Shown here in pieces: positions 7,122-59,897 of a DNA stretch of 64,000 nucleotides. Location: positions 620,001 through 684,000 of the forward strand of contig QPGO01000007.1 of the NCBI GenBank assembly GCA_008632985.1, in the 5' to 3' direction. The DNA is from Psammoneis japonica. Taxonomy: Eukaryota. Positions within the stretch are counted from its first letter, which is position 1, and each line of letters begins with the position of its first letter. Made by a program: the position numbers and the translations under genes. Under the pieces are notes generated by a model. The model saw nothing but the letters and a program-made list of their open reading frames with translations. It searched no databases and was not told where the DNA came from.

Positions 7122-7902
7122 GGTGAATACTGATGAGTATCACTATGGTATGCAACAGTTTTGTTGTTTGTTCAGTTGTTTGTTCAGTGTGATGGGTTGG
7201 TCCCATGGATTAGGTGGGACCGCCCCGCCAAAAAATGTGTGTCACTCGTGAGTTTGCAACGTTCATTTTCAAACGCACGTAGAAAATTTGATAGTCGTTA
7301 ATGGTACTTAACGACTAAATCGTGAATCTTTCGTGTTTGTCGATACTGGACATTATTGACATATAAAATAATTAAAGTTTGTTTATAATATTATTTTATA
7401 TCTTATGAAATTATTGGTTGTGTACAGTATTGCTTTATTACATTAATGTTCTAATCGAATCCGTATTTATTAAAAAAAATGTCTCACAGACAAAAACCCG
7501 TTGATTTCGTGTATTTTATGTACGTTTCCACATCATAGTATTGTTTCGAACAATTGCCTAATCGCTAGCCTGGATAAATAATAAGCTCCGAGCACGAATA
7601 GGCTCATTTAGATACAGGCAAAAATTCCAAAATTTGGATCGAGTTAGTCAGTCGCTTCCACCTGTGCCAGTTTCCCAGTTTCTGCGTTGCTTCGTCGCTG
7701 GACGATGCTTTGTCGTTGCACCACGTCCGGCGAATTGTATTCTTCATTCACAAACACATCACTGATCACTCGTCACCACCATCTCGGTACTGTACCGAGA
7801 CACGTACTAGGCTTGCCATCAGCCATCAGAAGAACTGGCACCCACATTCGGGGACGCACCCCTGTTTCAAATCTCAATTGAGAAACGGTACTCGTACTCG
7901 GC

Positions 7903-9036
7903 ATGATGACGCTTTCTACATCCAACGAAAAGGCTGCAGAAGATGTTACCAACGACCCTGTAAGGATCGAAACTCCGGTCGGATTCTTTGATGATTCTAA
8001 TGTTCTATCGAAACGTAAAGATGAGTCGGTGGGTTTAGGTATATCAAGACCTGTTTATGACAGTGATTGTCGACATGAGAGTCAGCAGAAGGATGTGTTG
8101 AACCCGTATGCGCTATCGCCAATAAGTATATTCGGAAGCAAACAACAGGAGCCATCAAGCAACGATGATGAAGCATCCACCGAGGAGGATCAAGACAGGA
8201 GAAAAGAAGAAGGTGATTGCCCTGCCTCCGAGCGCCCACCAATGTTGTCGTCCTATTTCAATGAGGCCGATGATTCGCCAGACTCGTCAGATAGAGAAGT
8301 AACAGAGATCTCTCCGAAGCTCTTGTCAGCTCTTGCTCTTTTGCATGCTGATCATGATGACGAGGTAGATTCTCTCGACGATGGATCATCAACGGCAGAT
8401 AGCGAGGACAGTTTCAGTCGGTATCCGCCCTCCCCCGTAACATCATCACCAAGAAAAAGAAGAGCTCTAATCAAACGTTTGCTTCGGTTTTCCAAATTTA
8501 GAAGCCACAAGACCAAGAAGCGAATGGGGATTACCCCCGCGTCATACGAGGCGTCTCTTGATGCACCCTTGTCTTTTACGGGGAAAGAATTCGCTGTCAG
8601 TAACGACAGAGCCGCTTCCATCCATCCGGTCACTGAAGTTCAGAAACATAGCTGCAGCTTGTCTGTTAGCACAATGGATCATTCAAGTCAAGACACAGAT
8701 TTTACCATGTGTTTTAGCTCTGTCTCGGAAGGCTGCAGCTGGGACGCCAATCGCGTCGAGTTGCTCATGCCCAGGTTTGACGCAGAGTCTTTACATTTTG
8801 CAGACCACGATTTGGTGGAAAGCATTCTTCGTCCATGGCAAGTCGCATTTCTCTCTTCCATTGGAATCACACTGCGTGAACAGCTGGTCCAAGCGCGAGA
8901 AACTCAAGAGGCAGATGTTGTCAACGCCATGGCGAAGTGGCGTCATGAACACAACATGACGTCCTTCAAGAAATCCCAGTACGCACTGGCTCTTCATATT
9001 TGGGCGCGGGCATGCCGCAAGGAAAACAAGGAGTGA
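7903..9036 (+). CDS. Hypothetical protein (377 aa), acidic/Ser-rich, with C-terminal 'LRPWQ...ALHIW' domain
   Basis: Intact ORF; 'ESILRPWQVAFLSSIGI...MAKWR...ALHIWARACRK' matches the neighbours. Confidence 0.8.
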   Translation: MMTLSTSNEKAAEDVTNDPVRIETPVGFFDDSNVLSKRKDESVGLGISRPVYDSDCRHESQQKDVLNPYALSPISIFGSKQQEPSSNDDEASTEEDQDRRKEEGDCPASERPPMLSSYFNEADDSPDSSDREVTEISPKLLSALALLHADHDDEVDSLDDGSSTADSEDSFSRYPPSPVTSSPRKRRALIKRLLRFSKFRSHKTKKRMGITPASYEASLDAPLSFTGKEFAVSNDRAASIHPVTEVQKHSCSLSVSTMDHSSQDTDFTMCFSSVSEGCSWDANRVELLMPRFDAESLHFADHDLVESILRPWQVAFLSSIGITLREQLVQARETQEADVVNAMAKWRHEHNMTSFKKSQYALALHIWARACRKENKE

Positions 9037-9215
9037 TTGTCGAACAGGAGGAGTCAAAGAATATTCATACATATATTACATAAGATACAACCAAAGCCAG
9101 AAAACGGTCCCCCAATCCAAGCACGGTGAAAGAGGCTAACGTAACGAAAGAAGATTCCATAATTAAGTGCCGAGCTGTAAGTTATAGTCCCGTTTGTGTA
9201 CGTTTTATCGCTTAA

Positions 9216-12200
9216 CTAAAAAGCTGAGTCATGACCCAGCGTAGACATGGACCTGTTGTCTGATTCCAGAGATACATCAAGGAACTTTGGCTTTTTTGGC
9301 GTTGTTATTCCCTGTGCACGTTGCTCTCGAATAGATTTGACGACAGTCTTGCACGTTCGAGCCCAGATGTGGAGCGCAATTCCGCATGAATTGGTCTTCA
9401 CGGAAATCATTTTCTTTGCCTTTCTCCACTTTCTCATTGACTTTGCAAGACTAGCCCCCCTCTGATTGTGTACATGAACCAGTTCCACCGCGGTGTGAAT
9501 TTCCATTGAGTTCAAGAATTCCACTTGCCACGGCCGTAAGATATTTTCGAGAGCCGTCGGGTTTCCATTGTCTTGAACCTTGATCGGCTGCGTGTACTTT
9601 CCACAGGTACACGCAACTCCAAGTTTTGGTAAGTAAAACTCAACGTGCTCCAGGTTTCCTGTGAACAAAGAGCTCTGACAGCAGCAGTCGGTGTTACTTG
9701 CGACCTTGTCCAAGTTACTGATGATAACATTCCTTTTTTTCTCTGCTGTACCCGGTACTTCAATCTTCCTGGGCGGACGGCCAGGAAGCTGAATGGCGTG
9801 AGACTGAGCTGACGGAACCATTTGGACTGAAGGCTTAAAATCAGTGCCCGTGCTTGATGCAACTGAACTTGCAATGCTTCTTGAAGATTTTCCTTTTTGA
9901 ATGGCTTTCTCAGCCCAGCAGAGCATCTTTGTAGCGTGGTCTCGAATTGCTTTGGGATCAGATGCGTTCGAGTCGTCACAGCCGAACTCTGATTCTATGG
10001 TCAAATCATCTGAGATCCCTCCTTCTGATCCACGTTCTTCAAATTCTTCTCTTGTTGAACCTTCTGAAGGGTTGGAGAAGCTTCTTTCATCAACGCACTC
10101 CCGCAAATCTGTTATCTTTCTTGTCGACGCATGTGATTCCGTAGGAGCTTTCCGCTGCTCTTCCTGAAGACGCTTGTTCTCATCCTCAAGTACGGCACAC
10201 TTCACACGAAGAGCATCTCGTTCGTCGGACACGATTGTGACCCTGTCCTCTTTCCTCGCCTTGGATTGCCTTTCTTCACCAAGTTCGTTGCTTAAAGCTT
10301 CAAGTCGTTTTTCCTTGTCTTCGAGTTTTGATCGAAGCGTGGCATTTTCGGCATTCGAAATATCCAAGCTTTTCTGGAGTAAAGCGATTTTATGGAAAGC
10401 ATCGTGCAGCTTGTTCTCCAGGTGCTGCGTCTCATAAGTTTTGGACGGCTTTTCCTTCTCAGCCTCTTGCTTCTTTCCTTCGATAGAAGCAAGCTCTATG
10501 TTCATATCCTCTGAGCTACCGTGAAAATGACGCTTAGACTCTTCCACCGGAAAAGCAACTGGGTCAAAGTAGTTTTCCTTCTCTTCCATTCCCTCGTTCT
10601 TCTGAAGCACTTCAGCCTTTGTAGCCACAAGATCTTCTTTGAGATCTGATATAGCTTTCTCGTACTCAGCCACGCGATCTGTCAGTCCTCTGATTTCGTT
10701 GGTAAGTGAAAGATTCTTCAAAGCGAGTTCACGATAATCTGCTTTTGAGTTTGTAATCTCTTCTTGTTTGAGTTGAAGAGATTTGGTGAGATTCGCGAGA
10801 GCTTGGTCTTTTTCTTTCAGCTCTAAGGCATTTTCCTGAAGTTGGTAGGACATTTCTTTTCTATCTATTGCTAGCGTATCGAAGGATCTCGTTGATTCAT
10901 CATCATGAACGGCATTCTCATCTCTCAAGTCTTCGATGCTTTCGATGAGTGAAAGCTCATACGAAAGAAGTGACGTTTCAACAGAGCTCTCGTTTTCCTT
11001 CTGCAGCTCTGATCTCACGTCGTCAGTCGCTTCTCCCTGATTTTCAACGTAGAGTGCAATACGACCTCGTCGTTAGCTCCTGCCGTATTTAAGTCTAAAA
11101 AAGTTCTATGCATTCTCTATTCATTGAAGTACTCACCTCTGACGAAGATATAGGCTTCTCATACCGAACGATGGATTCTTCAAGCTCCTCAGACGTGGTC
11201 GACGAGCGCTCATTCGAAGGGTGTTGGACGGCTTCATTGCTACACAAAGCCCTTCTTTGTCTCTCAGACGACTGCAGTCGATTTTTTAACTCGCTTATTT
11301 TTGCTTTGAGTAACTTGTTTTCCCGACGCATCGCTTCGCTTTGTTCTGGAGACAATGGGGCTTTCTGCACGTTCGGTGTAACCGTGTTTGTGATTGCACG
11401 CGCTCTCTCAGCGTAACGAAGAGTATTGATGGATTCTTCTATGTTGGCATCAGCAGGTGATACGCACGCAAACATGACGGTAAAGCAATTCCCTTGAAAT
11501 CCAAAGACAAGAAAGTAACGCACGTGAGTTGCATTGTTTTAACCCACACATGGACATATGGTCCGCTTCGGACCCACAAAGCGCATACCATACCTCCAAG
11601 AGAATCTCGTAGAAGACGCGTTAGCTTACTATCTCGATAGGGAACATGAGTGTTGGTGGAAACTCTTCTTGATGAATCTTTTTGTCTGCTCCTTTCCGCA
11701 AGAGCTGAGATAACTTTTCCCAAGACAAACAAATCCTTGTTAATGTTGATGCTCTCCTTCTTTTTCACACCAATGACACCTGTCTGTTTGAGACGCTCGG
11801 ATCCCGCAAGGTCAACAAGTGTTAGCTTCCCTCGCACTTTCTTTGTCGATCTTTTGGGTTTGACAGTCACTGTAAGGGTGCAAACCGCGTGAGATCTGCT
11901 AGAGGCTTTATTCATTCGCGTGCTGCCAGTCGTTCTTCTACACGCCGCTGCTTTCATAAGTGCCTTCACTTGACCGACCGATTGGACTTCTTGTACGGTA
12001 AGATCTTCAACTATCGTTCCCTCTTTTCCACTATCCCGAATTTCGAGGGATCTTGTTTCACTTGAGTCAACGAGTAAGTCTCTAAGCTCATCGTTGTAAA
12101 TCTCAAGGTAGTTCAAGTGGATCGAGACGTCACCAGATTTCTCTTTCAGCTTCTTTACTTGAAATAAGTCTTCAACGGCTCTGCAGATAATCCCATCATC

Positions 12201-12905: not shown

Positions 12906-13528
12906 TCTAAAAACACTGTCGCATCCTACAGTACAGTACCGTACTGAGCTCTTGGTGGACGGCACTTCCCAACATGGGATGGGAGAAAGGCAGGGTGAAC
13001 CAAGAATGTGGCGGTTGCCCTTCGTGTTGCGTGTGCCTGTTTGAAAGTTGGATGCAACGGAATAATGCAGTTTTCTTTATGAATATATATTATTGAATGT
13101 GTTATCATACACAAAATATTCGGTACTTTAGTTATCTATTTTGGTAGCCGGTGTCTTCAGTTGGTGGCGGCCATTATTCAGTGAGTCCTGCACACCGTCG
13201 TGTTTAGATCGTCTAGGGCCTAGTCTATCCAATTCGCAGGGAGGGGTGAAAGTGATTGTTTGGCCAGTGTTGACAACTCGCACGACTGTCAGTGGATCAG
13301 CCCCAATCAAGATCCGAAAATTGAGCAAATCCAGCCATGATTTGCTCACTTTGTCAGAGCCAATGATTTCTCTCTTTGTCCTGGGGCGCCTGGAAGAACA
13401 GGCAACGGTTTGGCGGCCATTCATGTCGACAATCATTGCAGTCAGCACCATGGTCCATGGTTGCTCATGCAACTGCAACATTCACTGCAACACAACACTG
13501 TCATGGGTGCAAACACAATCGCTCGTTG

Positions 13529-13804
13529 TGACAGGATTTGAACAGGATTTGGGTGCGCGCGAAATGTCGCGCGCTGTTTGGTTTGCCGCGCACAGTTTTG
13601 TGTGCTTTAGTTCCACGCGTTCGCGCGCGATGCAGTTTGCTTTCGAGCCACAAGGCTCACAAGAATGATGACAGCAGCCCGATTTTATCGACTTGCACGT
13701 CTTTCGGCTCCTGCAACGGTCTCTGAGCGGAGACTCATCTGCCATTTAGACAGCAGTGAGGAGTTGTTGTTTGAATTCTTGCCATTTGCCTTCAATTTCT
13801 GTCA
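13529..13804 (+). repeat. Copia 5' LTR
   Basis: TGACAGG...TTCTGTCA, near-identical to 22074-22349. Confidence 0.9.
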
Positions 13805-15885
13805 GATTGACAGTCTTGCTCATTGTCAACCCATTGAGCAACCGCCATCGTCGTCGTTGATTTACCGACGATGCCACCCTCAATTCTGCGTGGACCTCCG
13901 CATGTGTTCTGCGTACATCGGCAAGTCTGCGCGCATTCAACACCAGGCATCGGCAGGAATTTAACGTCACAGTCAAGTCTCCTCATCGCTGGACATCTGG
14001 ATTGATCACACTGCCTTTTGTCGCTGAAGACATGCATTCAACGGTCATGTCCAAGTCTGTCCTTGATCCTCATCCCTTTGTGTGCCCACTCAACGGTTAA
14101 CGGTCAAGAACCCCACACATTCAAGGATCTTCGTCGCTGAAGACATGCATGTGTGCACATCTTCACGGCCAAGAACTTGTGCCCACTCTTTGGACTGCGG
14201 CTTTGCCACCACTCTACAAGCACACCGAGTCCGTTGCACCTGATCTGCCCCAGACCACTGGTGCTCTGCAGTTCCACTGGGTCCACGAGGACGACTGTGA
14301 GAGCAAGCAGCCGTGATCACAGCCCACGTTGGGGCGAGGGTGTTTTCCCGCGTTTGTTCGTTTGTCCACAGCACCCAATGCCTGCGTCAACTGGCCAGCC
14401 TGATCGGGAAATCCAACCGACACAAAATAAGAATGGCCCAGGGGTCTTGTCCACCTCTGGTCAGCTTGCCTGCAGGGGTTTGCAACCCGCTGCTCCGCTC
14501 GCAAGCAACCCAAAGCGCCGCCAGCTGCGGGTTCGGACGTGCCGGCACAACTCTATGGACCGGACAGGAAGTGTGGCACTTGACAACGAACGGGATGGCA
14601 CAACCCAGCGACTTCTGATTTTAAGATGGTCCAAGATTTCAAGTCAAGTCTAGCTCAAGTCAAGTCTTTTTCAAGCCAAGTTCCAAGTCAAAACTCCGAG
14701 TCAAGATCGCGCTCTAGATTGGTTCCTGTCTTTTGTTTCTGCTGCACCGTCCTCCGTCATGGTTCTCACGTGACAGCAACAAACCAAAAGCTTCAAATGC
14801 ATTCCAGGCACTGTGCTCAATCAAGACGATGACAGCCCTCTTCATTCTGCCCTGTCCATCAATGGGATTGAATCGTGTGAGGAGTTGTTCACGTTCTCAC
14901 CCACCCAAATTGATGCCCTCACTTGCAGAGACGGCGCCAATGCAGTGCCTTTGCCATGGACCCACAGAAACCTCCTGGCAGCTTTGATCAGCTTCTAGTT
15001 TGTCAAAGTTTGCAATGGTGATGATGTGACCAATGAACCCCAGTTGCTCACACCCGACGAATTTCGCAACTGCCGCCTCGGTCCGGACCACTTGACCTCT
15101 CTAGCCACTGGCGCAACACCCTCCGCACCTGTGCCGAGTCCCTTGCCATCCAAACCAGGTGAACCCAGTGCCATTTTGACACCAGCCTTGCACTGTGCCG
15201 CCACTCAGGTGTCCCCTGGAAGTGGTGTCAGTCGCGCCCCGCATGTCTTGACCAACCCGCCTGCAAGCAACCTCGGCCCAGTGCAGGATTGCAGCCCTTG
15301 CACAGGCCCGCACTTCAAGACCAGTTGGGACACTCCACCCATGGCTTCCAAAGCTGCAGTCTTTGCACCCCGCAAACCACGTGCTGCCAACCTCCACATG
15401 TCGACCGCTGTCACCCTTCACAGTCTTCGTTTGGGAAGTGATGGAGATGACAACTTGCTTCTCGCATCTCCTGATGGGGAGCCTCCTTTTCCCGTCATTG
15501 AATCTGTTCACAACAGTTCAACCGGTTCATCAGATGGGGAGTTCAGGACATCCAAGCAGCTTCGTTGTCTTCGGATCCTCCAAGCATCACACCATGAGAC
15601 CAGGCCTCCTGACTGGATGCTCCAAGTCTCGTACCTCAAGACTGGGCCTCCTGATTGGATGCCCCAAGTCTCGCACCTCGAGACTGGGCCTCCTGATTGG
15701 ATGCCTCAAGTCTCGTGCCTCGAGACTGGGCCTCCTGATTGGATGCCCCAAGTGTCGCACCTCGAGTCCAGGTCTCCTGATTGGATGTCCCAAGTCTCGC
15801 ACCTCGAGACCAGGCCTCCTGATTGGATGCGCCTCAAGTCTCGTGCCTCGAGACTGGGCCTCCTGGTTGGATCCCCCAAGTCTCG

Positions 15886-16264
15886 TGCACCATGCTCGAA
15901 GAACGAGTGCAAACGAAAGTGGAACGAAGTTCAAAAGGTGAAAATTGTGAGAATTGTTTCTGCGCAATCATTTTGGGTTTCTCCGAACGGGTTCTCAACA
16001 GCCCAAACCTTTTGCACTGCTCCCACAGGCAAAAGGCCTTTCGGAGAATGTGATCGTGACGACAGATTGTCCGGATACGATTGACATTGACACATGAGAT
16101 GTCAACATCATCGTATGATCGCATTTGCGATTCTCGACATCCGATCACTTCTGTGTGACTGATCTGTGCTTCGTACGAACCCACGATTGACGCACGATTG
16201 AAATGTGCTTTTATTCAACACACAGATGTGCACATGCAACACGTGCATGACAACGCATGTTGCA
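15886..16264 (-). repeat. Gypsy 3' LTR (379 bp)
   Basis: Aligns without gaps to 20695-21073; TG...CA ends. Confidence 0.93.
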
Positions 16265-16290
16265 TTCGCCTCCCCAATTGCACACTGGAG

Positions 16291-19200
16291 TCAGTCGTTA
16301 AACGGCATTGTTCGACGAATGTTGACAGTGTCAACAACGTTGCCGCGTTTGATCTGCACTGTGCCATCAGTGTGTGCCGTTGTCATTGCATGCGGTCCAA
16401 CACAGGGCTGTTCTAATTTTTGCGAGTCTTTCTCGAGCAGTGTCTTTTCTCCCACTCTGTGCGCGCAAGGAGTGCGCCGAGCATTCTCTCGAGCGTCATT
16501 TTTATTTGTGATTTCTTGTTTTCGCTGCTGGATTGGTTTCCAGTCTGCGACATGTTGGACGTTAAATGTCATGTCTCCATTGAAGACTGGTTGTTCTGGT
16601 GCAGCTTGCGCAGTGGTGTGATGCACAGAATGCACCGCAAACGCTGCCGCTGACAGCATTCCAGCGAAAGGATCCTCAGCATCTAGAGGTGCATGTTGCA
16701 AATCAAATGCACGGAGCATGTTCCCCAGCACTTGATGTGCGCGTTCAATGATTGCGTTTGCTTGTGGATTTCGTGCAGTTGTGGGCTTGACTTCAATGCC
16801 ATGATCATCTTGCACCATTTCTCTAAATTGGTGTCCGATGAACTCACTTCCACGGTCACATGTAATTGACAATGGCCAAGGACATCTGCCTGACCATGTT
16901 CGTTCTAGCAGTCCAGCTGCAGCCATGGACTCCTTATTTGGGATTTCCACAACTTCAAACCATCCGGTTGCTGGATCGATCATAGTTAAACATTTCAGGA
17001 CTGGGGTTTTTTTCTTTCCCTTACGACGTATTTTGTATGGCCCAATAAGGTCCACACATAGTCGTTCCCATGGTACGGATTCTGCGCACTTAGGAGGTAA
17101 ATGTCCATATTTCTTGTGTTTCTTTTTGAATTTTTGGCACGTCTCACATATCGACACGTATTTTCGTATGTCTTCACGTAAGGTGGACCACCATAGGTGT
17201 TGTGAGATTGTTTCTTCTGTTCGATTTATGCCAGGGTGAAGAAGGTACGTATGATACCAATCTATCACTGCCTTTTGTAACGTCCTCGGGACGACAATTT
17301 TATCCTTATGACATATGAGCAACCGGTCTCGCTCGCCTCCACGAAAAGTCTTCGTATGAAACGTCTTATTTGACAATTGGGAGAGAATGTCTTTGTCCCG
17401 TTTTTGTTCATAATCAAGAACTTTGTAATTTAACGGAAAGACATTGTCGTAGGATTTTGGTAGGACCTTTTCAGCTAGCTCTTCTGTGCTGAGGGTTTCC
17501 ATAGGTTCTATTTTCTTCATAGTAAGTCGGCTAATCGCATCTGCGACAATATTTGCCTTGCCCTCAAGGTGTGTTATTTTGGGACTGTATTCTTCTATTA
17601 TTAGACGCCAACGCATGACTCTGTCCGTTGTGAAATTTTTGTGTGTGAGATTTTTGTGATCCGTATATATATTTATCTGTTGGCCAAACAGTATATTGCG
17701 GAACTCTTTTAACGTCTCCACTATGGACAATAGTTCTTTTTCTGTTGTAGTGTGACGCGTTTGCGCTCCATTCAGCTTGCGGCTGTAGAAGGCAATTGGT
17801 CGGTTTTTCTGAGTAATAACCGCCCCCAATTGAGAATTACTGGCATCGGCACGTATCTCAAAGGGTGTGTTAAAATTCGGGCACGACAATGGCATGTCTT
17901 TGGAGATGATGCGCTTCACATTTTCGAAGGCTTTTTGTTCTGTTTCGGTCCATTGCCACTTCACTTGGGTAGAAGTGAGTTTGGCTAAAGGAGCTAAAAC
18001 ATGAGATCGTCGAGGCCACATGTCTCGACAGCAGTTGATCACACCGATGAAGCGCCGCAATTCCTTGCGAGTTTCAGGAGTTGCGATCGCGTGAATCGCT
18101 TCTGCTTTTTTTGGAATCGGACTGATGCCCTTGCGGGTGATGTGAAAGCCCAGACAGTCTGCTTCGGGTTTAGCGAAAAAGGACTTCTCGGCGTTGACCT
18201 TCAATCCGGCTTGTTCCAGGCGCAAGAACACCGTTTCAAGCTTCTTGAGGTGGTCTTGAAAACCACCTTTTGCAAGACACAATGTGTCGTCAACACAAGT
18301 TCTGACGAACTCCAGACCTGCCATGAGCTCACTCATGTGCTCTTGGAAAATGTCTGGAGCTCCACAGATTCCCATCGGGAGTCCACAGCACTCACACTTG
18401 CCCCAAGGCATGACGATCGTGCACAAGCGACGTGCATGTGGCGTCAATTCGATGTGACAGTGTCCCATGTTTAAATCCAGGGACATTGCATGCATGAAGC
18501 CTTCGAGCTTCTGCAGCATGTCCTGAACATTGGGTGGAGGAAACGGAGTGCGAATTAACCTCTCATTCAGCTCACAAAAGTCGGGTGAGAACCGAACTCT
18601 ACCATTTTTCTTGGGTTGAACAAAGGTTGGAGCCGCCCATTCAGAACATTTTATTTTTCTCAAGACTTTCAACTTGCATGGTCTTTCAACCTCCTTACAA
18701 GCAGTCGCCTCCAAGGCTTGTGGTGCGGGAAATGGTTTGGCATGATGCGGACTCACGCCCGATTTCAACTTTAAATCCACCGGTTTCCTGGTCCATTTGC
18801 CCAGAGAACCATCAAAAAGGTTTTCAAATCTTTTTAAGAGGAACTTCAGCTGCTTCTGCTCTTCAGGAGTTAGATGAGCAGCTGCTGCGGTCACATTGTT
18901 GAGGTTTGCAGCGTGACAGTCTGAGTCAAGGATCCGATTGACCCTGTCATTAAGACTGATCACTGCATGAGATTCCTCAATGTGATCGGCAATCAACTTA
19001 AAAACATCGGCATCAAAGAGTGTGTCAACATTCTTCACAGGAGTGGTTGCATCTTCCCATTTAATCTCTTCATTCGAGAAGTCCAATGTTGTCCCAAGAC
19101 TTGACATTAAGTCGCGTCCCATGATCACATCACAACAACTCGAAGAAGAAGGGGAGCTGTCAACATGTGCCGTTGTTTCAATCATCTCATGTTTGTCAAA

Positions 19201-19395
19201 TTTGGGCAAGGAGAATTGGATCTTACATCGACTGTCAGTCGTGAAGAGCCCTCCTTTGGTTTCCCAGAGTTTGGTGGCGGATGCTTTTGTTCTGAGTTTC
19301 CGCGTGAATTTGCACAAAATTATGGTTGGCGATGTTCCGCTGTCGAGGAGAACGCGCAGAGGCTTGTTTTTCGCCTTGCCCAATGAAGTGTTCAC
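16291..19395 (-). pseudogene. pol: Gypsy pol (protease, RT, RNase H, integrase); frame open but missense-damaged
   Basis: 'LLDSG', 'LPMG...APDIFQ', 'CVDD' in place of Y(I/L)DD, 'DAS..QLGAV', 'YTDHKNL', 'HPG...C..CQ', 'CDRGSEF' and 'NPQANAIIERAHQ'. Confidence 0.93.
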
Positions 19396-19527
19396 ATGGG
19401 CGACGACTGCTGGACTAGTGTGAATTACTTTGGCCCTTTTTCTGGGCTTCCCAATGTCCAGCAGAGCGCAAGACTCCTCTTGCGGTGCAAGTCATTCCTC
19501 AGAATCACTGCGCGTCATTTTTTCAAA

Positions 19528-20658
19528 CTAACAATTTTCCTTGTCAAGGGTGTCAGAATCACAATCTTTGCTCTTGTGTTTTTTGTCATTGTTCGAAGAA
19601 CTCGCTTTGAGTGTTTTTTGAACTGCTTGGATCGCCATGGCATTCAACTCTTCTTTGCGAGCGGCGTTGTCGTTATCGCGACGAGACCACGTGCGATTGC
19701 CATTTGAACGGCGCCGTTTCGGGTCGGGTTCATAGTTCCCACGGCGTTCTTTCGCAAGTCTTTTGATCGACCAGCACTTGTCCGTGTCATGAGTGGATTT
19801 CTCGCGTGAAATGCACCACTTCTCGGACTGAGATTTTTCGGCACCATGTTGGTGACCATTTTTGGAACCACGTTGGGAACCACGTTGGGAACCACTCTTG
19901 GCTTTTGATGCAGTGCCGCCACTGCCATCAGCCTTGGCATGAATGCCATCAAACATGTCTTCTGCGACCTCTGGGCGCTCCAAGAACTCAACCAACTCGT
20001 CACAGGTGTGTTTCAAAATTTCGAAACCCTGGACGGTCGACTGACGCTGCCACTTTCGAGGTGCAAGGTTGAAGAGGATGTCCTTGAGCTCGTCGTCCTC
20101 GATCTTCTGTTCCTTCCCAAAAGGAGGATAGAACTTGAGGTCTTCGTTGACTTCCTGGACCCAAGCAGCAATTTCGCGCACTTTCATGGACTCCGGCTTC
20201 TTGAGATCACGACGCAAATAACGTTTCTGCACCGAAAGTGCGTTCTTGGGAAACACATGCCTTGTGAGATGTTGCAGGCATTTCTCAAAGCTTCCTTCCG
20301 CAGATTCGTCTTCAAGGTTCGCTGCCGCATTCTCAAAAGCACGTAGAGCGTCTCCTTGGAGTGACATGCGCATGAGACGAAACTTGTCAGATTGCTTCCT
20401 GATGTTCTGGCCCACTGGAAGTTGATCGTAGCTCTTGAGAAATTCGATGAACTTGGGGACACCTTGTTTCTTGTAGCACTCAACATTGATGGTGCAGGTG
20501 CGGCTGTCCTTCTTCTCGGGATGAAAACGTTGCTCCATCTTGAGGTGCTGGCTCGGTTTGAGGCTCTTTGGCTCGGAGTTCGATTCCAGCGGTTGAGGGA
20601 CGATTTTCTCCTGCCTTAACGAAGTTTTGGCGTTGGTTGCATGAGGTGAAAGCTTCAT
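19528..20658 (-). pseudogene. gag: Gypsy gag, in the same frame as pol
   Basis: Lies between the 5' LTR and pol; 'QKRYLRRDLKKP' and a degenerate Zn knuckle 'WCISREKSTHDTDKC'. Confidence 0.85.
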
Positions 20659-20694
20659 CTTGAACTTGTTACCTTCTGTGGTGTGTACACACAA

Positions 20695-21073
20695 TGCACT
20701 GTGCTCGAAGAACGAGTGCAAACGAAAGTAGAACGAAGTTCAAAAGGTGAAAATTATGAGAATTATTTCTGCGCAATCATTTTGGGTTTCTCCGAACGGG
20801 TTCTCAACAGCCTAAACCTTTTGCACTGCTCCCACAGGCAAAGGGCCTTTCGGAGAATATGATCGTGACGACAGATTGTCCGGATACGATTGATGTTGAC
20901 ACACAAGATGTCAACATCATCGTACGATCGCATTTGCGATTCTTGACATCGGATCACTTCTGTGTGACTGATCTGCACTTCGCACGAACCCACGATTGAC
21001 GTACGATTGAAACACACTTTTATTTAACACATGGACATGCATGTGTGACACGTGCATGACAACGCATGTTGCA
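20695..21073 (-). repeat. Gypsy 5' LTR (379 bp)
   Basis: Aligns to 15886-16264. Confidence 0.93.
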
Positions 21074-22073
21074 CTCGTACCTCGAGACTGGGCCTCCTGA
21101 TTGGATGCCTCAAGTCTCGTACATCCAGACTGGGCCTCCTGATCGGATGCCCCAAGTCTCGTGCCTTGAGACCAGGCCTCCCAACTGGACTCTCCACGTC
21201 TCGTGCCTTGAGACCGGGCCTCCCAATTGGATCCTCCACGTTTCACACCTCAGGACTCGGCCTCCGGATTGGATCCCTCAAGTCTTGCGCCACGAGACTC
21301 GGCCTCCTGATTGGATCCCCCAAGTCTCGCACCTCAAGACTTGGCCTCCTGATTGGATCCCCAAAGACTCGTGTCACAAGACTGGCAAGTCCTTTTGGAT
21401 CCCAGAAGTCTTGCAGCACGGGACTGGTTGCCCCAATCAGACATCTGCAGCCTTGCACCACAAGATGTCTTGCTCCAATCCGATCCCCGAAGGCTTGCAC
21501 CTTGAGACTCGTTTCTCCAATTGGATCAGTCTCTCAGGAGATGCAGCTGAGCTTGCAATTGGATTGGTGGAACACAAGACCACCGCTTGTGCCTTTGAAC
21601 TCATGCTTGCTCTGTTCCCCGAGTCGTGCAAACGCCATGCCACCCTGCACGAGCACTGCTCTGTTTTTCCAGCAGCAGCCCAGTGTGGCAACAGTCCCAA
21701 GAACCAACAGACGGCCATCAGTCTTTATGACCTTCGCTCAGGAAGTGAAGGCGATGTCAACTTGTTTGCATTGTCCTGCAATGTTGCCCCGCCGTTCAAC
21801 ATTGTCAACCAGACCAAGCTTTGCTCCTTCCATTGCAAGTGCAGATGTGGAATCCCACAAGATCCCAAGTGTGCCTTGAGCTTTGAAAAGCACAACGGCA
21901 TCTGCAATTGGGGAGACGCTGCTCATTTCAAGATGACCCACTTGGAGAATGCAACGTTGCTCTTGGATCTTGATCCTTTCTTGTCTCCTCATGTTTTGGT
22001 GCTTTGACTCCAAAGTTCTTCAGTCAATCCGAAGTCGAATCTGTTTTTGTGACTCCTCAAGCAAACTGGGGAG

Positions 22074-22349
22074 TGACAGGATTTGAACAGGATTTGGGTG
22101 CGCGCAAAATGTCGCGTGCTGTTTGGTTTGCCGCGCACAGTTTTGTGTGCTTTAGTTCCGCGCGTTCGCGTGCGATGTAGTTTGCTTTCAAGCCACAAGG
22201 CTCACAAGAATGACAACAGCAGCCCGATTGTGCCGACTTGCACGTCTTTCGGCTCCTGCAACGGTCTCTGAGCAGAGACTCATCTGCTGTTTAGACAGCA
22301 GCAAGGAGTCATTGTTTGAATTCTTGCCATTTGCCTTCAATTTCTGTCA
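22074..22349 (+). repeat. Copia 3' LTR
   Basis: Direct repeat of 13529-13804, preceded by GGGGAG. Confidence 0.9.
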
Positions 22350-22350
22350 G

Positions 22351-22524
22351 AGACATGCAAGTCAGTGTAATCGGGCTGCTGTCATTGTTCTTGTGAGCCT
22401 TGTGGCTCGAAAGCAAACTACATCACGTGCGAACGTGCGGAACCAAAGCACACAAAACTGTGTGCGGCAAACTAAACAGCGTGCGACATTTCGCGCGCAC
22501 CTAAATCCTGTTCAAATCCTGTCA
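22351..22524 (-). repeat. Inverted copy of the first ~174 bp of the Copia LTR
   Basis: Ends ...AAATCCTGTTCAAATCCTGTCA, the reverse complement of the LTR start. Confidence 0.9.
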
Positions 22525-24576
22525 CGTTGGACCCAAGCAGCGCAGCAGAAATTTGGTCATTGGAAATGACTTGTTGCTCAAGTGCAGCACGTGTGTGTGC
22601 CAAGATGTGCGGGGCACACATTGTGCATGGTGACTTTAAACACATGGTTGTTGCTTGCTGTTGTGTGTTTCCGTTGGTTGGCACTCTTGCTTCAAGTGAT
22701 TTGCGACCACAAAAATCACACATCATTTCGTCTCACCTTTTTTTCTCACAACACCACACTTGGCCGGCAGAGTGCAGAGTGTGGGAGAATGGCACTTGTC
22801 ATTCAACGAGAGCACCGTGACTTGTCGGCAAGATTTGATCATGTTGGCATGCAGGCAAACATGGTGGCACTCAATGGCAAGGCACCAGCGAGGGTGCGGA
22901 TTTTGATGATGACGGCAAGATTCAGCATGAGTTGCCAGCATCAACATTTGTTTGTCAGACAAGCAAATTCTCTGCATCCTCCATTGCTCTGCTCTGATGC
23001 ACTTGGCCCCGCTCCCGGTGTGCATCGCGCATGATGCACATGCGAACTTCAGAAAATCGCCCAAAATCGCTGACGTGCATCGTGGGCGATGCACGTGAAG
23101 TCTTTTTTGGCACTGCTTTGTTGCTGAAACTTGTCTCTTCAGCAAGAGCCTCTGTTGATGAATGTCAACACATCCTCGTCTTCTGCTGCGCTTGATGTGC
23201 TTTGTGCTGTTTTTCCAGGGTTTGATTGGCTTGTCTCGTCCTCCAACAATTGTTTCATTGACTGCCTCTCGGAAAGTGCGAGACAACAACACGACAACAA
23301 GGTGCGAAAACTTCCGACTGCGTTGCACTGTCTAGAAACATTTCCGGGTGAGGGAAGCAAATCCGGGTGATTGCAGCGACTTCACACGTGGAAAAGACGT
23401 GGAAATGCACACTGAGTGCATCGCCCACAGTGCACATGTGCAGAAGCCACGCAAGTTTTCCCGCCACAAACACCCAATGTTTACATCATGTCAGCTTCGA
23501 CAAGAACAGTTGAACTTGGCTCTTTTTTGCTTTCAGGGAAGAACAACCTCTGTGTTGACTGTGAGATTCACGCAGTCAGTCCGATTCAAGCTCTGCGGGG
23601 GAAAAGCACGAGAGGTCTGAATCAGTGTGCATCATGCGTGATGCACACAATTCGGGGAGTGGGGTTAGGGCCCTGGGCAAATGCATGTATGAGTTAGCCG
23701 GGGTGGGGCTAGTTGGTCGTGCACGTTTGGGTTCGATGTGATGAGCAACCAGCCATGACACGGCGTGGGTCAAAACGTTGTAAAATGACTCGACAACAAG
23801 CAGTGAGAAGAAACCCAGCTTCACCCATGAATACAGCGCGTAAATATTGTCCAATCGATTTGATCGTATCTGGAAATACCAACTGGTAGACAAGTGAACG
23901 GCGTTTGCGTTGCTCGCCATGGTGTTGTTGTGCGTTGTCGTGCCCGCTGTTATTGCGCGCGAAGGGGATCTATTTTGCCCATAGTGAATCTGTTTTGCCA
24001 ATAGTAGATATTTTACTATATGCAATCGGGAGATATTTTGAGAAGCGCTTCGCGACAAATCTGTTCGGACCGTTAAATAGAACTTTTTTTATCCAGATTC
24101 CAGAGTTCTTTCGGGGTGTTCTGTCAGATTTTTTAACAAGTATATGTGTAAATTAAAGGCATTAGAAAATTCAATGATATGTAAAACCCTAAGAGACGAA
24201 CATAAATTTATCTTCCATGTAGACCACGTAGATTGTGTACCGGCGGAAAATCCACCGCATGTCAACTCACTCAGTAGTAATTCTACGTATATTCTACTTA
24301 CACCTCACACGCGTACACACACCTACACAGTCTAATAACCGCGCACACGTGCGCGAGACCACACATGCGAATGCAACTTAGACATCGATATAGAAACACA
24401 TGTTTTTTACTGTATTTACACGCCAACGAAGACCGTTAAATGTCAGGTCAGCTTGTGCGTTCTTCTCTTCCCTCATAAACCTTACCTTCGGTTTTCGGTT
24501 GTGCTTGGTGCATCTGCCAGCATCTCCTTTGACCGACGGCAGAGTCTGTGAAAGAGTCGCCGCATTTGTTTTTGTC

Positions 24577-25533
24577 ATGTCCTTTGTCGAAGACGACAGT
24601 GGTGATTCTTTTGAGTGCGACGCTCGCCATGATGGTGTAGACCTTGCTTGCGAGCATGCAATGCAAGAGCAAGCGTTTTGAGAAAGCAACGACGACACCG
24701 TCCATTCCCCTGAGCCTCGGGCTCAAGCCCCCACGGCTGTGTCTCCACGCTTGGTGAAGGACATGGATGAATCGCTTCTTTGCGTGGACCTTGAATGTGA
24801 GCACGACATGCAGGAAGAACACTGCAGTTGGATTGAAAATGGACAGGGTCATTTCTTGCGTCGGACGTGGCTCCGAGTTGCCGAAAGAGAAGTTGTCCTT
24901 CGCAACGTGGGCAGCCACGAAGGCCTCGGCGTCCACACACACATGCGAAACATCAATGATGAGTCCCACGCCCATGACCGACACCCTTTTGTGGCGGTCA
25001 TCCACCTGCTCAACAATGCACAAGAAAATTCTACGGTGCACATTTCCGTGCCAATTGTGACAGACATGCACTTTCTGGATGAGTTGTGTCATTGCGCGAA
25101 ACCGGTGTTTTTGGGGGGCAGGGGACTGGTGGTGCGGGTCATTGTGGGACCTCAGCGATGGGTGGCAAACGAGTTTCAACGATTTGTGGATGGAGATTTT
25201 GCCGGTGCTGCTGGCAACAGCAACGATCGAGAAATGGCTGTTGGAAGGCTCCAGCTTCGCAGATTCGGGACAGATCAGGACGCGAAACGATCTTCCCATT
25301 CTCACACAAATGCAATGTGCATGACGGCTGGTGCCTTGATTGGTTCCCACAACTGCACGCATGCATCAAAGCATCATCACCGTGAGGATGGTCTCATGAC
25401 GCCTCCCGGCTTTGAGGCGGACAGTTTGCGTCAACGACTCGAGGACGTCTGGAATGCAGGAGAATCGTTTGCAGTTTGCAGCAGGCACGTGCGTCCCCCG
25501 CCTGGATGCGTTCCTTCTCCAGAAGCGAAATGA
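24577..25533 (+). pseudogene. PLD-superfamily (HKD nuclease-like) gene remnant, one in-frame TGA at 24679
   Basis: 'STVHISVP..TD..FLDEL...LVVRVI' and 'SHTNAM...ALIGSHNCT..S...REDGL' resemble HxK...GSxN; no Tyr in the frame. Confidence 0.55.
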
Positions 25534-28249
25534 ACCAAGACCACTTAGAACTGAATCATTCTTGTGGCAGAGCATGAATCGGGGTGTCACCGGGTCATGT
25601 GCAGAGGGAGGGGAATGCGTGTCGAGAACTGACGATGAGGCTGAGCCGAGGTGGGTCATGATGTCATGATGCGCGAAGGGTGCGTTTTGCGCGGCAAGCG
25701 CGGGGGGCGACTCCGATTTTCGTGTTTACGATCTTGTCTTAAGATGTTGCGGGGTGTGCGATCAGCACTCTGCCACCGGCAGACACTGGCTTGATCCTGA
25801 CAACTGGTCTCCTCTGTGGATTGCCCCTGCGGTGCCATTCCTCCCTCTGCCGGGAAAGAATGGCAACTCAGCTGTGATGTCCTGCGATGATGAACCCAGT
25901 TCGGAGCTCCGTCAAAAACACCCTCAGACTGACGAGCATGCGTCAGATCAATCTTGCCTCTCCCACAAATCTTGTGTCATTGTTGGTGCCACTGGGTCCC
26001 CCGTTAGAGAGAGACGGCACGCCAATTAGCTGCAACTCTTCCCCTTTCTTCAAAGGAGCCTCCTCGTCCTCAGCCTCTTGCTGTTGCTGAAGTGGTTTTT
26101 TTCGGCGTTCTTCATTTCGTTTGCTGATTCGTTGCCAACTGACCTCTTTTTCATGTTCACTCATTTGGTCCCAATTGTGAATTCTTCGTGTGCTCCCTCC
26201 ATGTTGTGGTGAACTGGCTTGTCCAAGAAAATGGACGAGCCGGGATTTTCCTCTCCAAAAATGGGGAGGTTTTGCCCATCCCGACAAGATGTTTGGCAGT
26301 GCCTGGAACAGGGCAGTGATGCAGAAGGCGCAGGTCATGTCAAACTGACCTGACTGGGGCTGGTGTCAGCTCAAGGGGACTGAGCAACTCCAGCCATGCT
26401 TTTGCCGAAATGGGTGCCAGGACCGTTTGGCGAAGACTGCCACTGTCGCTCAAATGGTGGGTGGCGCAAAGCAACCCTCACAATTTCTAGAATCCTGTTG
26501 ATTGCCGCAACAACACTTTTCTTTAGTGTCTTGTCAATTCTTGGTGACTGCAGTGTGATTTGCTCAAAACCATGCAAAAGGCAGTGACGGACGGCAATGT
26601 CTCTTTCTCAGTTCAGTGCGACACTTTCACATTGCTCCCAGCAGACAGGTCTTTTTTGATGTTCCTTCATCTGTCATTTCACAGATGGTGAATTTGTTTT
26701 TCACAAAAGGTGTTCATGCCCCTCTTGCGGAAAAAAATTGTGGACGCCCTTCTGCTGCACACCAGAAGCATCGCCTCTGTGCCAAACACACCACCGCTCA
26801 ACACAACCATGGTGGCAAACCCAACTGAGAATCCGCCCCCAAACAGTTGACAGATGGGCTGAATTGCAGGCTCGAGCTTGGTTGTGACAGAACACACAGA
26901 GACTCACAACACAACAACAAATTTTAACATTCCACATTCCTCACTCTCCACACCCCAAAACAAAGGACGATTGCATCCTCTCTCATGAGTGACAGCTGCA
27001 AAACTCAACACTCTGCCATTTGCCGTTCATGTTCACTTCGCTTGTTTGAGGGCATTTGTCTCCTTGCTCAGAATCTTCAACATTTTCTTTCTGGATCTTC
27101 TGGTCAACCTCATCATCTTGGAATGTGATTTCTTGAGCCCCGTCTTCTTGTCCCAGTCATGAACATCTTGTTGGCTCTTCTGTGCCCTCTCCATGGCTTG
27201 TTTTAGTGCATTCAGCCAACTTCTGCAATCCATTGTTTTGGTGCGTTCTACAATCAAGAGGTTCCGAGTCACCTTGGTTGACAACAGAGTCAGCTCGTTG
27301 TTGTGGCAGCTGCTGGGCCAGATCAAAAATGCAGTTCAGAAATTGAAGAACACTTCTCCTCCTCTGTGCTCACATGTTTGACCCATCATGTGGTGTCCCC
27401 GACAGCATCCCATTCTTTGGGCCTGATGTGTTGTCAGACAGAGAGCCATTTGTGACATTCAGAGACTGGGCTCGTTCAAGCCATGAGCTGTGACTTCTCA
27501 GCAGCATCACATGCTGCACTGGCAACTGGCAGATCTCAGCAAGCAGCTGCACAAGCTTTCTACACTGGCAGAAAGTGCAGGGAGCAGGTGCGCATGCACA
27601 CGACTCTCATGTGCAGCAGCACAGTGAGCAGATGATGCACTGACATGATTGCATGAAATCTACAATCAAGCCTGTGGCTGTCCTCCAGAGTCACACCAAG
27701 TGCAAAAAGACTTTCCTTCTTCTTTTTGTGAAGCCAAAGCAGCCAGTGTTGCACACAGCACTTGATGAGCCCCAAGAGATGAGTGCCAGTGCTTGGAGAG
27801 TGAACCTTTTTCTTCACATGGACAAAGATGTTCGCGCATGTGCATGAAGTGAGTGCACAATTTGTGCAACCAGGCGCAACTGTTTCACAGCAAAGCAGTC
27901 TTTGCACCTTGCTTGTTTGTTTGTTGCCAAATTCACAGCATGTCATGAGGCACAGTGATGCTGCTGCCACCTGCCACAATTGCTCAGAGCAACCTGCTGA
28001 AGTCACAGCAACTGTGCTGCTCAGCAATGCTTGGCAAACCAACTGCCTGCAGCTGCCTCAATGGAAAAGAGGATGGCTCATGCAGCCCTTGGCATCCTGA
28101 GAAAAAGGAGCAATGGCAGAAAGAGGGTGGGGCATCAGACATGCAAGAATCTGTGTGTGACTCAACAGAAACAGCACAACAGCATGCTGACATCACCACT
28201 GGACTGGCAAAGTGCCTGTTTGCAGAGGGTGGGGGTGGGGTGAGGTGGG

Positions 28250-31200
28250 GGCTGTTCTCAGAGGCCAGTGCCTCAACAATGTTCAACAAGACAACAGAGC
28301 AACAGAGCTCACCATGGAGCCAAACATCATGACAAACCAAGTGGTGGAGTGTGTGTGCACAGCAACAAAAAGCATCTCTTCCCCAGAGGTGTTTTGCACA
28401 AAAGTCCACAAAAGTCACAAGAGCTTGTTTGGGCTGCATTGCAGTGGCCGCTGAGCTGGCAGACAATTGCATTTTTTGAAATTTTCCTTTGCTCATTGAA
28501 GGAGGGGATGCCCCAGACCCTCTGCCAGACAGCATGTTGGCAGATTTGTTTGACGAGAGCAGAGAGAGCAAAAGGCTTGGCAGCACCACATGTGGTGCTT
28601 CAGGATTTTGATCCACGTGCACATGTCATGTCAGAGCTCATCTCATTTCACAAACAAATTGATCAGGTTGAAGCTGCCAAAGGTGGATTTCAAAACACTG
28701 AGACGAAAAGGCTCCATGCAAGTTGTGAGTGGGAAAAAGACAGCCCAAGTCTTTGGTCAAAAACAGCAAGAAAAATGCCAAGTCTTGCATGTTGTGAACA
28801 GCAACAACTGTGTGCACACAGCTTCACCAAGGAATGCCACAGTTTGCAGTGCACAACAAAAAAATTGAGACTGCACATCATCAATGAGATCACCAAAAGA
28901 AAAAGGACAACCTCCAGGCAGAATTGAGCACTGTGGTCAAAGCCATGGTTGAGAATGCACTCAAGACACATGGAAACCCAAGAGAAAAGCACATCAAAGG
29001 AACTGAACAAGTTCAAGGTGCTTTTGATCTCCAGCAACTCCAGTGGCAACAAATTGTCAGATGAAAATTTGTGTGCCTGGGGTGGAGGCTGACATGATGG
29101 CAACAAAAACTTTGTCGTTGTTGGCTGTTGTTGTGGTGCTCACACACACTGCACCCAATCAAGAGTTGGTGGTGGCAATGTGACAATTGCTGCAAATGGA
29201 ACTCACTGTGGAATCTTTGGGTGCAGATGTGAAGGTGGTCAACATTGAAATCAAGTTGGGAAGTTGTCCATTGGAATGGCAGACAACACCAAAAGGTCAA
29301 TGATGAGATGTCCACAAGAAGCATGGATGCTGCTGCCAGAAAAACAGCACCTCACACTTGGGAGCCCAAAATTTTTAAGAAGTGACAGGAACAGAATTTT
29401 GGTCATTTTCACAGCAAAATTTGAGCTGGCAGGAGATTTGCCTGAAGTTGCCAAAAATGCCAATGGCTTGAATGATTTTTGAAAGCAAAAAGTTCTTGCT
29501 TTCCTCAAAAAAGCCTGAGTTGCTCTTTGCTGGTGCCTTGGCAAATGGAAGGCAGGTCCCTTTCACACCCAGCTGAAGGATGCAGCAGAGCTGTTCCACA
29601 TTCTCAACACCCTCCCCATGAAATGCCAAGGGCATTTGAACAAATGCAAAAGAAGAAGATGCAACAACCTCACAGTGTCAATGACTCGAGCAAGCAAATC
29701 AACTGGAGTGGGCAGCTCTGTTGTCATTGTTCTAAAAAGGATTGGACCATCTGACTCTTGAACAAGTCTTGTGAGTTGGACAAAACAAGCACTTGGCTGT
29801 CACCTGAAAGCGTCAAGAAAAGTGAGCTCTGAGGACCTGTGCCAGTGCAGAGGGCTTTCACTTTACAGCAACTCTGCACTGATGAATTCACCAGAGGTCA
29901 TCATGTCTGAGAAAAAGGCCAACACAACTGCTCCAAAAATTTTGGCAGCATGGATGATTGTCTCAATGCTCATCAGCCAAGTTTGACTTAAACTCATTTT
30001 GCAAGCCAAAGTGGAAAATGGCAAAAATGTGAGCATGTTGCACCCACCTTGTTTGCAGCTTTGCATGCCAAGCATGTCCAAAATCTGAAAGCTCTGTTGG
30101 ACAGTGGAGTGAGCAGCACTTTTAATTGAAAAGAAGTGCAGCAAAAAAACGGCTGCAGGAAAATTCTGTGAAGAAATTGTGGAGCACTGTTGCTGCCTAA
30201 TTTTTAACAAACAAGCACTGCATTGTCAAACCAATGCTGCCAGAGAGATGCACCTGATGCAATGCTGTCAAAATTCTCAGCCCATTTGCACAATGGAAAG
30301 CTTGGCACTTGCGGCATGGTTGCAAGACAGGATGTTTTAGAAGCTCACAAGTGTCAATGTCACATTCTCCAAACAAGTCACCCAACAGCTGAAAGCCAAC
30401 AGTGAGACACCAATGCTGTGAAATGTGTGGGTGAAGCCCATTGCAAAGACTGGCTCCATGCTCAAGAGTCAAAAAAGCCAAAAAGCAACTTCAAGAGAAT
30501 CTCAGCCATTTGCCAGCTGCAGGCCAGTGGATTTGCCTCAAGTCCCTGAAAGCACTGAAGGTTCAGACAATTTTAAGAAGCAAAATTGCCGGACATTTTG
30601 AAGAAGTGTGAGCCACTGTTTTGCAGCACTTTGGGCAAGTGAAAGGGTGGTCCTTGCTGCTCCCAGCTGAAAGAAGGAGCTGGGCTGCTCCACACTCAAC
30701 CTTGTGAGATTGTAAAAAGGGCTTGCTGACAAACCCTGAAAAATGAGATGCAAAGACCATGTGGCACCCAAAAAAACAGTTTTGCAACCTCTTCCTGGTT
30801 GATCCCCTCAGCTGTGATAACTGACCCCATTTGACAAGTGGGAAACTGGGCTGTGTTGAGGTTAAAAAAAACAAGATCCTGCCTCAAGACAATTGTCATT
30901 GACAAAAACAATGCACAAGCTTGCTCAAGTCATTTTTCTGTCACTGGAAAGAGAAAAAAGTTGTGCAGAGTCAATGTTTGTCATGTTGTGCCATCCTCAG
31001 CATCTTCATCAGGTCTACAAACAGTGACCCTTCATGCTTGACTGTGTCCAAGCCAATGATGTCATTTAGAGTCAACCCTGAAATGTCCACTTTGTGTGTT
31101 GTGTCAGCAAGTTTGTTGGTGACAAAACCCTGTGAGCATGTCCCATGGATCAAAAGGTTTGCCAAACACCACAAGAGCAACAGAAAACAACGTGATCAAA

Positions 31201-31330
31201 TCACTCAAGCTCTCATGACATGACAAAGTGTTCTCACCCCTGCACCATTGGGCATGATGAGGAAATTCATCAAAATCACAGAGAGGGCAATCAAAAGATC
31301 AGCCAACCATTGGGAGTTGCGAGAGCACAC
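28250..31330 (+). mobile_element. Highly degenerate Gypsy-like gag/pol remnant
   Basis: 'HVVLQDFDPRAHVMSELISF', 'HSFTKECHSL' and 'RILVIFTAKFELAGDL' echo the gag/pol of the intact element; no LTRs found. Confidence 0.45.
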
Positions 31331-31898
31331 AATTGGCTCACAGATAGAATCAATGTGTTGGCCATGAATGGCAAGAGAAGAAAGCGTCCCTGTTGATCTC
31401 CCCTTCCTCCAAACCCTGCCACAGACAGTAGAAAGACATGCACATGGTGACTTGTTCAGCAAATGAAATGGAACATCTGCGAAGAACATTTCAAGGCCGC
31501 ATGTGAATCGGGAGCATGTTCCTGAGTCTGTTTCGCGATGCAAGACCACACGATCTTCTACTGTGGCCCCTAGCAAGAGTCACAACACCGGGCGGCTTGC
31601 ATGGGGAACACGAGAATGAAAACAAGGAGTAGTACACTGCTCCAATAGAATCCACGGCGCCCTAAATACTTGATTTTCTGTCTCCACAGAACAGGATTCT
31701 CTTTGAATCGATATTACATTGGATGAGCAAATCTAGCAAACATGTGGAGGACAAAATGGTTGCTCCGCGATGTGTGCTTACCCCAAGTATACCGACATGA
31801 GCACCGAGCTTACGAAACGGGTAAACGAGCAATATGGACTGCTCTATTAATCGATGATTTCTCTATTTTTTTTGTCAAATAAGAAATCCTCGAAACTA

Positions 31899-59854: not shown

Positions 59855-59897
<43 letters not shown>

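Follow-up and report, generated by a model that had tools for sequence, protein, structure and literature searches.

Hypermutation of chromosomal DNA restricted to the TpA dinucleotide was recently described in the alga Bigelowiella natans, in which A/T>G/C changes at TpA only were measured de novo in a single-copy, integrated viral region (10.64898/2026.01.13.699255). According to this preprint by Mettrop et al., the TpA mutation rate is about 1000-fold above the background, and the process is ongoing and line-specific, with an ADAT2-like enzyme as a candidate, albeit not a proven one. Reverse-transcriptase (RT) and DDE domains were reported to be enriched among the TpA-poor genes, and an extension to transposons was suggested; diatom, long terminal repeat (LTR), trinucleotide and flanking are not mentioned in the main text of the preprint, nor are spared patches treated there (10.64898/2026.01.13.699255). 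Here we describe changes of the same kind in a Ty3/Gypsy LTR retrotransposon of Psammoneis japonica, found in a stretch of 64,000 nucleotides (contig QPGO01000007.1, positions 620,001 to 684,000; hereafter the window, in the numbering of which all coordinates are given). As in the B. natans DNA that stems from nucleocytoplasmic large DNA viruses (NCLDVs) and virophages, TpA was converted to TpG or CpA on both strands, at the DNA level, regionally and at a rate far above the background. Unlike in B. natans, the targets are a multi-copy LTR retrotransposon and its flanking repeats, probably in a stramenopile genome; the loss is nearly saturated, with observed/expected (O/E) ratios of TpA of 0.04-0.15 against 0.45 in the NCLDV region; and the mutations, measured de novo in B. 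natans, are read here from fossil changes (10.64898/2026.01.13.699255). We are virtually certain of the mutation spectrum, its direction, the strict TpA context, the mutation of both strands, its timing after insertion, its confinement to non-genic DNA and the destruction of conserved Pol residues. The kind of mutation is the one recently described, and what is new here is another lineage, retrotransposon targets, near saturation and a context fingerprint. Our literature search, which left most subscription journals outside its coverage, found no report of TpA hypermutation in a diatom or an LTR pair.

The two LTRs of one element are identical at insertion, and those of the present element (Table 1) originated from a single insertion, as a 4-bp target-site duplication bounds them and the 42-bp tandem array to the left of the element is resumed to its right. 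Their alignment is gapless over 379 bp and contains 32 mismatched bases, which group into 22 sites: eight with TA in one copy and CA or TG in the other (TA-type), ten with CA in one and TG in the other (reciprocal), two with CG versus TG, and two others, namely an A/G difference inside an AA run and a C/G difference. The reciprocal sites lie at LTR positions 6, 200, 210, 282, 319, 321, 338, 342, 348 and 352. An earlier note on this DNA, made by eye, had given exactly these counts, and had stated correctly that most CpGs survive in both LTRs: 22 CpG steps are common to the two, together with three TpA steps. Its further claim that each copy keeps TAs lost by the other holds in both directions, albeit in a lopsided manner, as the TA is kept by the right LTR at seven of the eight sites and by the left LTR at one. 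TpA is its own reverse complement, and thus yields TG or CA depending on the strand hit; as the LTRs were mutated independently, the same step can now be read as TA, CA or TG. The excess of reciprocal sites is not expected by chance, since 32 random transitions placed on the left LTR gave at most five of them in 20,000 trials. It is also absent from comparable elements. In 21 divergent LTR pairs drawn from 80 related Gypsy loci (identical pairs, two pairs less than 88% identical and duplications longer than 1 kb were left out), reciprocal sites accounted for 1/205 differences against 10/22 here, and TA-type and reciprocal sites together for 40/205 against 18/22 (Fisher's test, p 7e-9).

The direction of change was obtained from the Pol protein, which we compared with 120 homologues. 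No fewer than 16 of the 21 conserved tyrosines, including that of the RT catalytic motif, read Cys or His in the element, whereas 108 of the homologues contain no such replacement, 11 contain one and a single homologue contains two; none of the 120 has lost tyrosines as the window copy has. Among the 55 departures at columns conserved in at least 90% of the homologues, 29 fit TA>TG/CA, three fit CpG loss, none fits a CA/TG>TA change and 23 fit neither. Outside a patch of pol described below, Tyr was replaced by Cys or His at 14/15 conserved positions, against 1/101 changes at an A preceded by A, G or C on either strand, so that A:T>G:C is restricted to TpA with both TpG and CpA as outcomes, just as in B. 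natans. Likewise, TpA depletion was seen in none of the 80 related Gypsy loci retrieved from metagenome and viral collections (O/E 0.57-1.04, median 0.72). These searches favour intact copies of Gypsy loci and Pol, and thus serve as a control, not as a survey of the process.

The 29 TpA-explained changes comprise 17 TG and 12 CA on the pol coding strand, which excludes RNA editing or editing of one cDNA strand. Both strands having been mutated and the two LTRs being different, the event took place in chromosomal DNA after insertion, as the earlier note had proposed. The locus resembles APOBEC3/ADAR editing in showing a deaminase-type hypermutation of a retroelement, but those enzymes work prior to integration, on RNA or on a single cDNA strand. 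[quoted passage not shown] Nevertheless, RIP makes TpA from CpA/TpG by C:G>T:A changes, and neither such changes (0/55 in Pol) nor a gain of TpA (O/E 0.08 in the low-TpA domains) was found here; fungal RIP works in the opposite direction.

Other copies of the family were examined in a public DNA run (X1, one sample), from which 4,670 contigs aligned to the element; two further runs, X2 and X3, gave one and none, respectively, and no RNA run was listed as containing it. X1 may be the assembly's own sample, and hence does not provide independent support. We consider 40 of the 1,204 positions at which the window copy differs from the family, selected for high share. At nine of them the window has CA or TG where the TA letter accounts for 0.86-0.98 of the family depth, and at ten the family has CG; the window has TA against a family TG at one, CG against CA/TG at four, and the remaining 16 are of other kinds. 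Within the LTR, the TA letter makes up 0.89-0.96 of the depth of the other copies at positions 15921, 16024 and 16193, whereas at 16116 these copies carry CG. Position 16024 is CA in both LTRs, and represents either an expected double event in the same direction or an inherited one. CpG decay is thus real and not negligible in the window copy, but it does not account for the reciprocal sites. If these were of CpG origin, 44 sites would comprise 22 left intact, two with a single event and 20 with two events, a split that is rejected under equal rates across sites (chi2 36, p 2e-9). A TpA origin predicts 1.3, 11.4 and 18.3 for these classes against 3, 8 and 20 among 31 sites, ten of which are inferred double events in the same direction. 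In addition, the LTR half with 9/10 reciprocal sites retains ten CpGs intact in both copies. The flanking repeats display the same pattern: one position of the 42-bp array reads TA in three, CA in five, TG in four and CG in one of its 13 units, and a 279-bp repeat pair (13528-13806 and 22073-22351) differs at four reciprocal, two TA-type, six CG-type and two other sites. The right member of this pair lies in a 453-bp palindromic element with 175-bp arms (22073-22525), resembling a miniature inverted-repeat transposable element, and the left member, 8.5 kb away, is a partial second copy of it. Altogether, Pol polarity, the family letters, the array site and the rejection of a CpG origin support TA as the ancestral state of the TA-type and reciprocal sites, as anticipated in the earlier note.

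Such a process seriously affects the dating of the insertion. The Kimura two-parameter distance between the LTRs is 0.092, but only two differences in about 269 sites (0.0074) are left when TA- and CG-class sites are set aside. The age of the element, as the earlier note suspected, is thus inflated, by about 12-fold (3 to 100, Poisson interval), a figure based on only two background differences. With a rate of 4.77e-10 borrowed from Phaeodactylum tricornutum (PMC6604790), the raw and corrected distances would correspond to about 1e8 and 8e6 generations, respectively, for illustration only. We estimate about 2.0 events per TpA in the left LTR and 1.1 in the right LTR, and a TpA mutation per base about 200 times the background (59-1,765) as a fossil ratio. 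TpA loss exceeds CpG loss about 38 times in the LTR pair, albeit with two CpG events only. Methyl-CpG deamination likewise turns either strand of silent domains to TG/CA, and is active here too; however, the source of the present changes is TA instead of CG, and CpG loss was about 40-fold slower on the same two events.

Mutation was not confined to the element. Seven low-TpA domains of the window (31,078 bp in total, leaving out a GC-rich segment encoding repeat proteins at 59549-60986) contain 166 TpA, against 1,257 in the 31,484 bp that are normal, and their TpA O/E is 0.08. The recognisable genes, namely open reading frames (ORFs) for an XPB-like helicase, a kinesin, an amine oxidase and a phenylalanyl-tRNA synthetase (PheRS), lie in normal DNA and keep 2.2-3.6% Tyr. 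TpA loss is thus confined to non-genic domains, presumably silent ones, and spares genes. Older low-TpA blocks are poor in CpG as well (O/E 0.18-0.45); as some domains have lost most CpG and the Gypsy domain has kept it, TpA is lost first.

Within the element, one patch of pol was spared. Its TpA O/E of 0.70 is close to the median of the 80 related loci, against 0.14-0.17 in the rest of the element and 0.34 in the right LTR, and conserved tyrosines are kept at 4/6 positions inside 16900-17870 and 0/15 outside. Summed depth in X1, which does not give a copy number, is 6,351-11,234 in the patch and 5,214-11,685 in other internal bins. Coverage of the patch by other copies thus equals that of the adjoining DNA, indicating that repetition is not sufficient for mutation. 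None of the 40 family positions falls in 17008-17760, a gap that is not significant by a rough estimate, and five non-TA ones fall in the wider patch. Possible reasons are chromatin protection and gene conversion by a young copy at a later time.

The observations above can be assembled into the following scenario. A Ty3/Gypsy element with identical LTRs would have integrated into the tandem array, and the chromosomal DNA of silent, repeat-rich domains would later have undergone a host process that changed one A:T pair to G:C at most TpA steps. An event on the top strand would leave TG and one on the bottom strand CA, the target being gone either way. As the CA and TG outcomes are intermixed in each LTR (11 runs vs 9.5 expected, and 5 vs 6.5), we infer several rounds. 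The data also point to one or two events per TpA, a favoured pyrimidine on the 3' side of the A, and sparing of TTAA. TTAA contributes 12/47 of the surviving TpA in the element against 4/66 in the patch (p 0.005). Product excess peaks in TGC (1.9x), and asymmetric contexts favour the strand with C or T after the A. As for the chemistry, our guess is that adenine may be converted to inosine by a TadA/ADAT-like deaminase, guided by heterochromatin and not by repeat pairing, in defence against transposons. We know of no natural enzyme that edits chromosomal adenine at such a scale, and adenine base editors were obtained only by evolving an enzyme of tRNA. The TGC excess in the window resembles the UACG motif reported as preferred by TadA-derived editors (PMC8052359). 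Taken as a whole, including adenine deamination, this explanation is one that we favour on balance.

Several points weigh against it. A lesion at A and a lesion at T cannot be distinguished from sequence, and the one natural ADAT2 reported to deaminate DNA adenine, that of amphioxus, prefers GAA, not TA (PMC10354150). The context fingerprint (TpA survival 0.75 at TTAA, 0.40 at CTAA/TTAG and 0.016-0.018 at ATAC/GTAT/ATAT) was calculated against gene DNA of a different composition, and the 3'-pyrimidine preference is only a trend in the polarised codons (p 0.10). Among the 40 family positions, which were chosen for high share, CpG losses (10) match TpA losses (9), and the ten reciprocal sites are absent, and hence were not polarised directly. 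Most of the family depth at these selected sites is still unmutated, so that the process has not stopped the Gypsy family. Lastly, the spared patch is not accounted for by the proposed process.

The best rival places the lesion on the other base. A TET/JBP-type hydroxylase may mark the T of TpA as 5-hydroxymethyluracil (5hmU) in silent transposons, with further oxidation products mispairing with G and giving T>C; mutation would then arise as a side effect of an epigenetic mark, just as CpG decay follows from 5-methylcytosine. Oxidised T mispairs with G, but 5hmU itself pairs like T. This model would explain both the domain-wise targeting and the accompanying CpG loss in the older blocks. Nevertheless, TC was spared, as conserved Glu/Asp changed to Gly at 0/31 positions outside the patch, and no report of 5hmU in a diatom was found in our literature search. 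In dinoflagellates, which belong to the same assemblage of stramenopiles, alveolates and Rhizaria (SAR), 5hmU made by TET/JBP enzymes is reported to be enriched in repeats and to silence transposons, with a preference for TA/TC in older reports (PMC11572971). We regard thymine oxidation as unlikely, although it is the main competitor of adenine deamination.

Recognition of repeats by DNA pairing, as in RIP but with the opposite chemistry, appears improbable. All identified targets are indeed repeated DNA (the LTR element, the tandem array and the 279-bp repeat pair with its four reciprocal sites), and diatoms are reported to carry DNMT4 enzymes related to RID (PMC9998398). However, the spared patch is equally covered by other copies, the runs along the LTRs reveal no strand-coordinated tracts, and the B. 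natans target is single-copy (10.64898/2026.01.13.699255). A PLD-like ORF of the window (24682-25530), which may or may not be repeated, lacks Tyr altogether. Less probable still is that A>G at WA was produced by error-prone synthesis of a polymerase eta-type enzyme as heterochromatin was repaired or replicated. This polymerase favours TA among WA motifs and gives A>G, and an A/G in an AA run is among the two LTR differences classed as other; still, it largely fails because AA was untouched (O/E 1.25 in low-TpA domains vs 1.16 elsewhere), conserved Lys/Asn/Phe changed at 1/45 positions outside the patch, and transversions and indels are almost absent between the LTRs. Ordinary causes, that is, methyl-CpG decay at the reciprocal sites, with CA/TG>TA drift or RIP at the TA sites, or an assembly artefact, are hardly credible: CpG decay is present at two LTR sites and ten of the 40 family positions, and X1 contains only 0.54 of the sampled words of the element, but Pol polarity with its Tyr-to-Cys/His pattern, the model fit and the family letters contradict decay, and, against an artefact, 654/4,670 aligned contigs are at least 99% alike to the element and, the patch being less than a quarter of it, mutated words must exist in X1.

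The element shows direct LTRs with TG...CA ends, a short target duplication and the RT, RNase H, integrase order of Ty3/Gypsy elements (Table 1). The Pfam domains of Pol are RVT_1 (293-451), RT_RNaseH (514-635), Integrase_H2C2 (734-790) and rve (809-909), and alignments of Pol relatives extend into the gag-like stretch. The stop at 19530 that closes the gag-like ORF is private to the window copy, all other listed depth having a different letter. Beside the 5' LTR, a short palindrome (20671-20694) is present with no obvious tRNA primer-binding site; it might allow self-priming, as in Tf1-like elements. No tRNA gene and no further copy of the Gypsy LTR were found in the window.

Table 1. Positions of the retrotransposon, its parts and the surrounding domain in the window
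Feature	Position	Strand	Remarks
5' LTR	20695..21073	-	Keeps 10 TpA; TG...CA ends; gag and pol come after on the minus strand
3' LTR	15886..16264	-	Keeps 4 TpA, more heavily mutated; purine-rich tract adjoins (about 16265-16278)
gag-like ORF	19528..20739	-	Named by position, no Pfam match; TpA O/E 0.15
pol ORF	16291..19491	-	RT, RNase H, integrase; Ty3/Gypsy order
Target-site duplication, 4 bp	15882..15885 (left copy), 21074-21077 (right copy)	+
42-bp tandem array, left half	15596..15885	+	Split by the insertion
42-bp tandem array, right half	21074..21415	+
TpA-retaining patch inside pol	16824..17995		Late RNase H to integrase core; only partly mutated
TpA-depleted domain around the element	13227..23665		TpA O/E 0.12-0.14 with the patch excluded; CpG O/E 0.75-0.79

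Elsewhere in the window, the PLD-like ORF mentioned above (plus strand, 283 amino acids) contains one TpA and 56 CpG, and matches PLDc_2 below the cut-off (E 3e-5), the single notable Pfam match among 76 frames of the other low-TpA domains. Its atlas matches to viral and bacterial PLD-like clusters are 0.91-0.93, and it is possibly a foreign or dead gene mutated by the same TpA process. A second TpA-retaining patch (23666-24483, O/E 0.88) lies just upstream of it, between two depleted domains. Both TpA and CpG are nearly absent (O/E near 0-0.2) from 27500-31500, 34500-37500, 45500-47500 and 51000-52500, blocks of probably greater age or methylation in which nothing but faint traces of a Pol-like sequence (29204-30819) was seen. 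Inverted repeats of 93-106 bp, 1.4 kb apart (42242-43790), span a boundary between normal and low-TpA DNA, and their arms differ at three TA vs CA sites. Two opposite-strand ORFs with a 289-base N gap inside (58771-61626) have many repeats of Ser/Lys/Gly and Pro/Thr, with KxxK-like motifs, and are reminiscent of diatom silica-wall proteins. The gene-dense DNA of the window also carries a nitrate-transporter-like gene of the major facilitator superfamily, and the gene density, this gene and the KxxK-rich repeat proteins make it appear diatom-like.

In genomes of this kind, TpA-derived sites must be masked prior to LTR-divergence dating, the annotation of transposons and the modelling of GC content, all of which fail otherwise; TpA mutation has wrecked the genes of the present element in addition to overstating its age. 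The B. natans signature in another lineage, on LTR retrotransposons and with a readable flanking-base preference, offers a system that can be cultured, and a fingerprint in the sequence by which the enzyme may be sought. It is tempting to speculate, tentatively and at somewhat less than an even chance, that the alga possesses a dedicated, chromatin-guided DNA editor that clears TpA from transposon domains to near saturation, either a natural genomic adenine base editor or a mutagenic thymine-oxidation mark. If so, the LTR pair would serve as an internal rate clock, the spared patch would be a footprint left by targeting, and the process would be shared with Rhizaria and may represent an old SAR-wide defence of the genome, the A:T counterpart of RIP.

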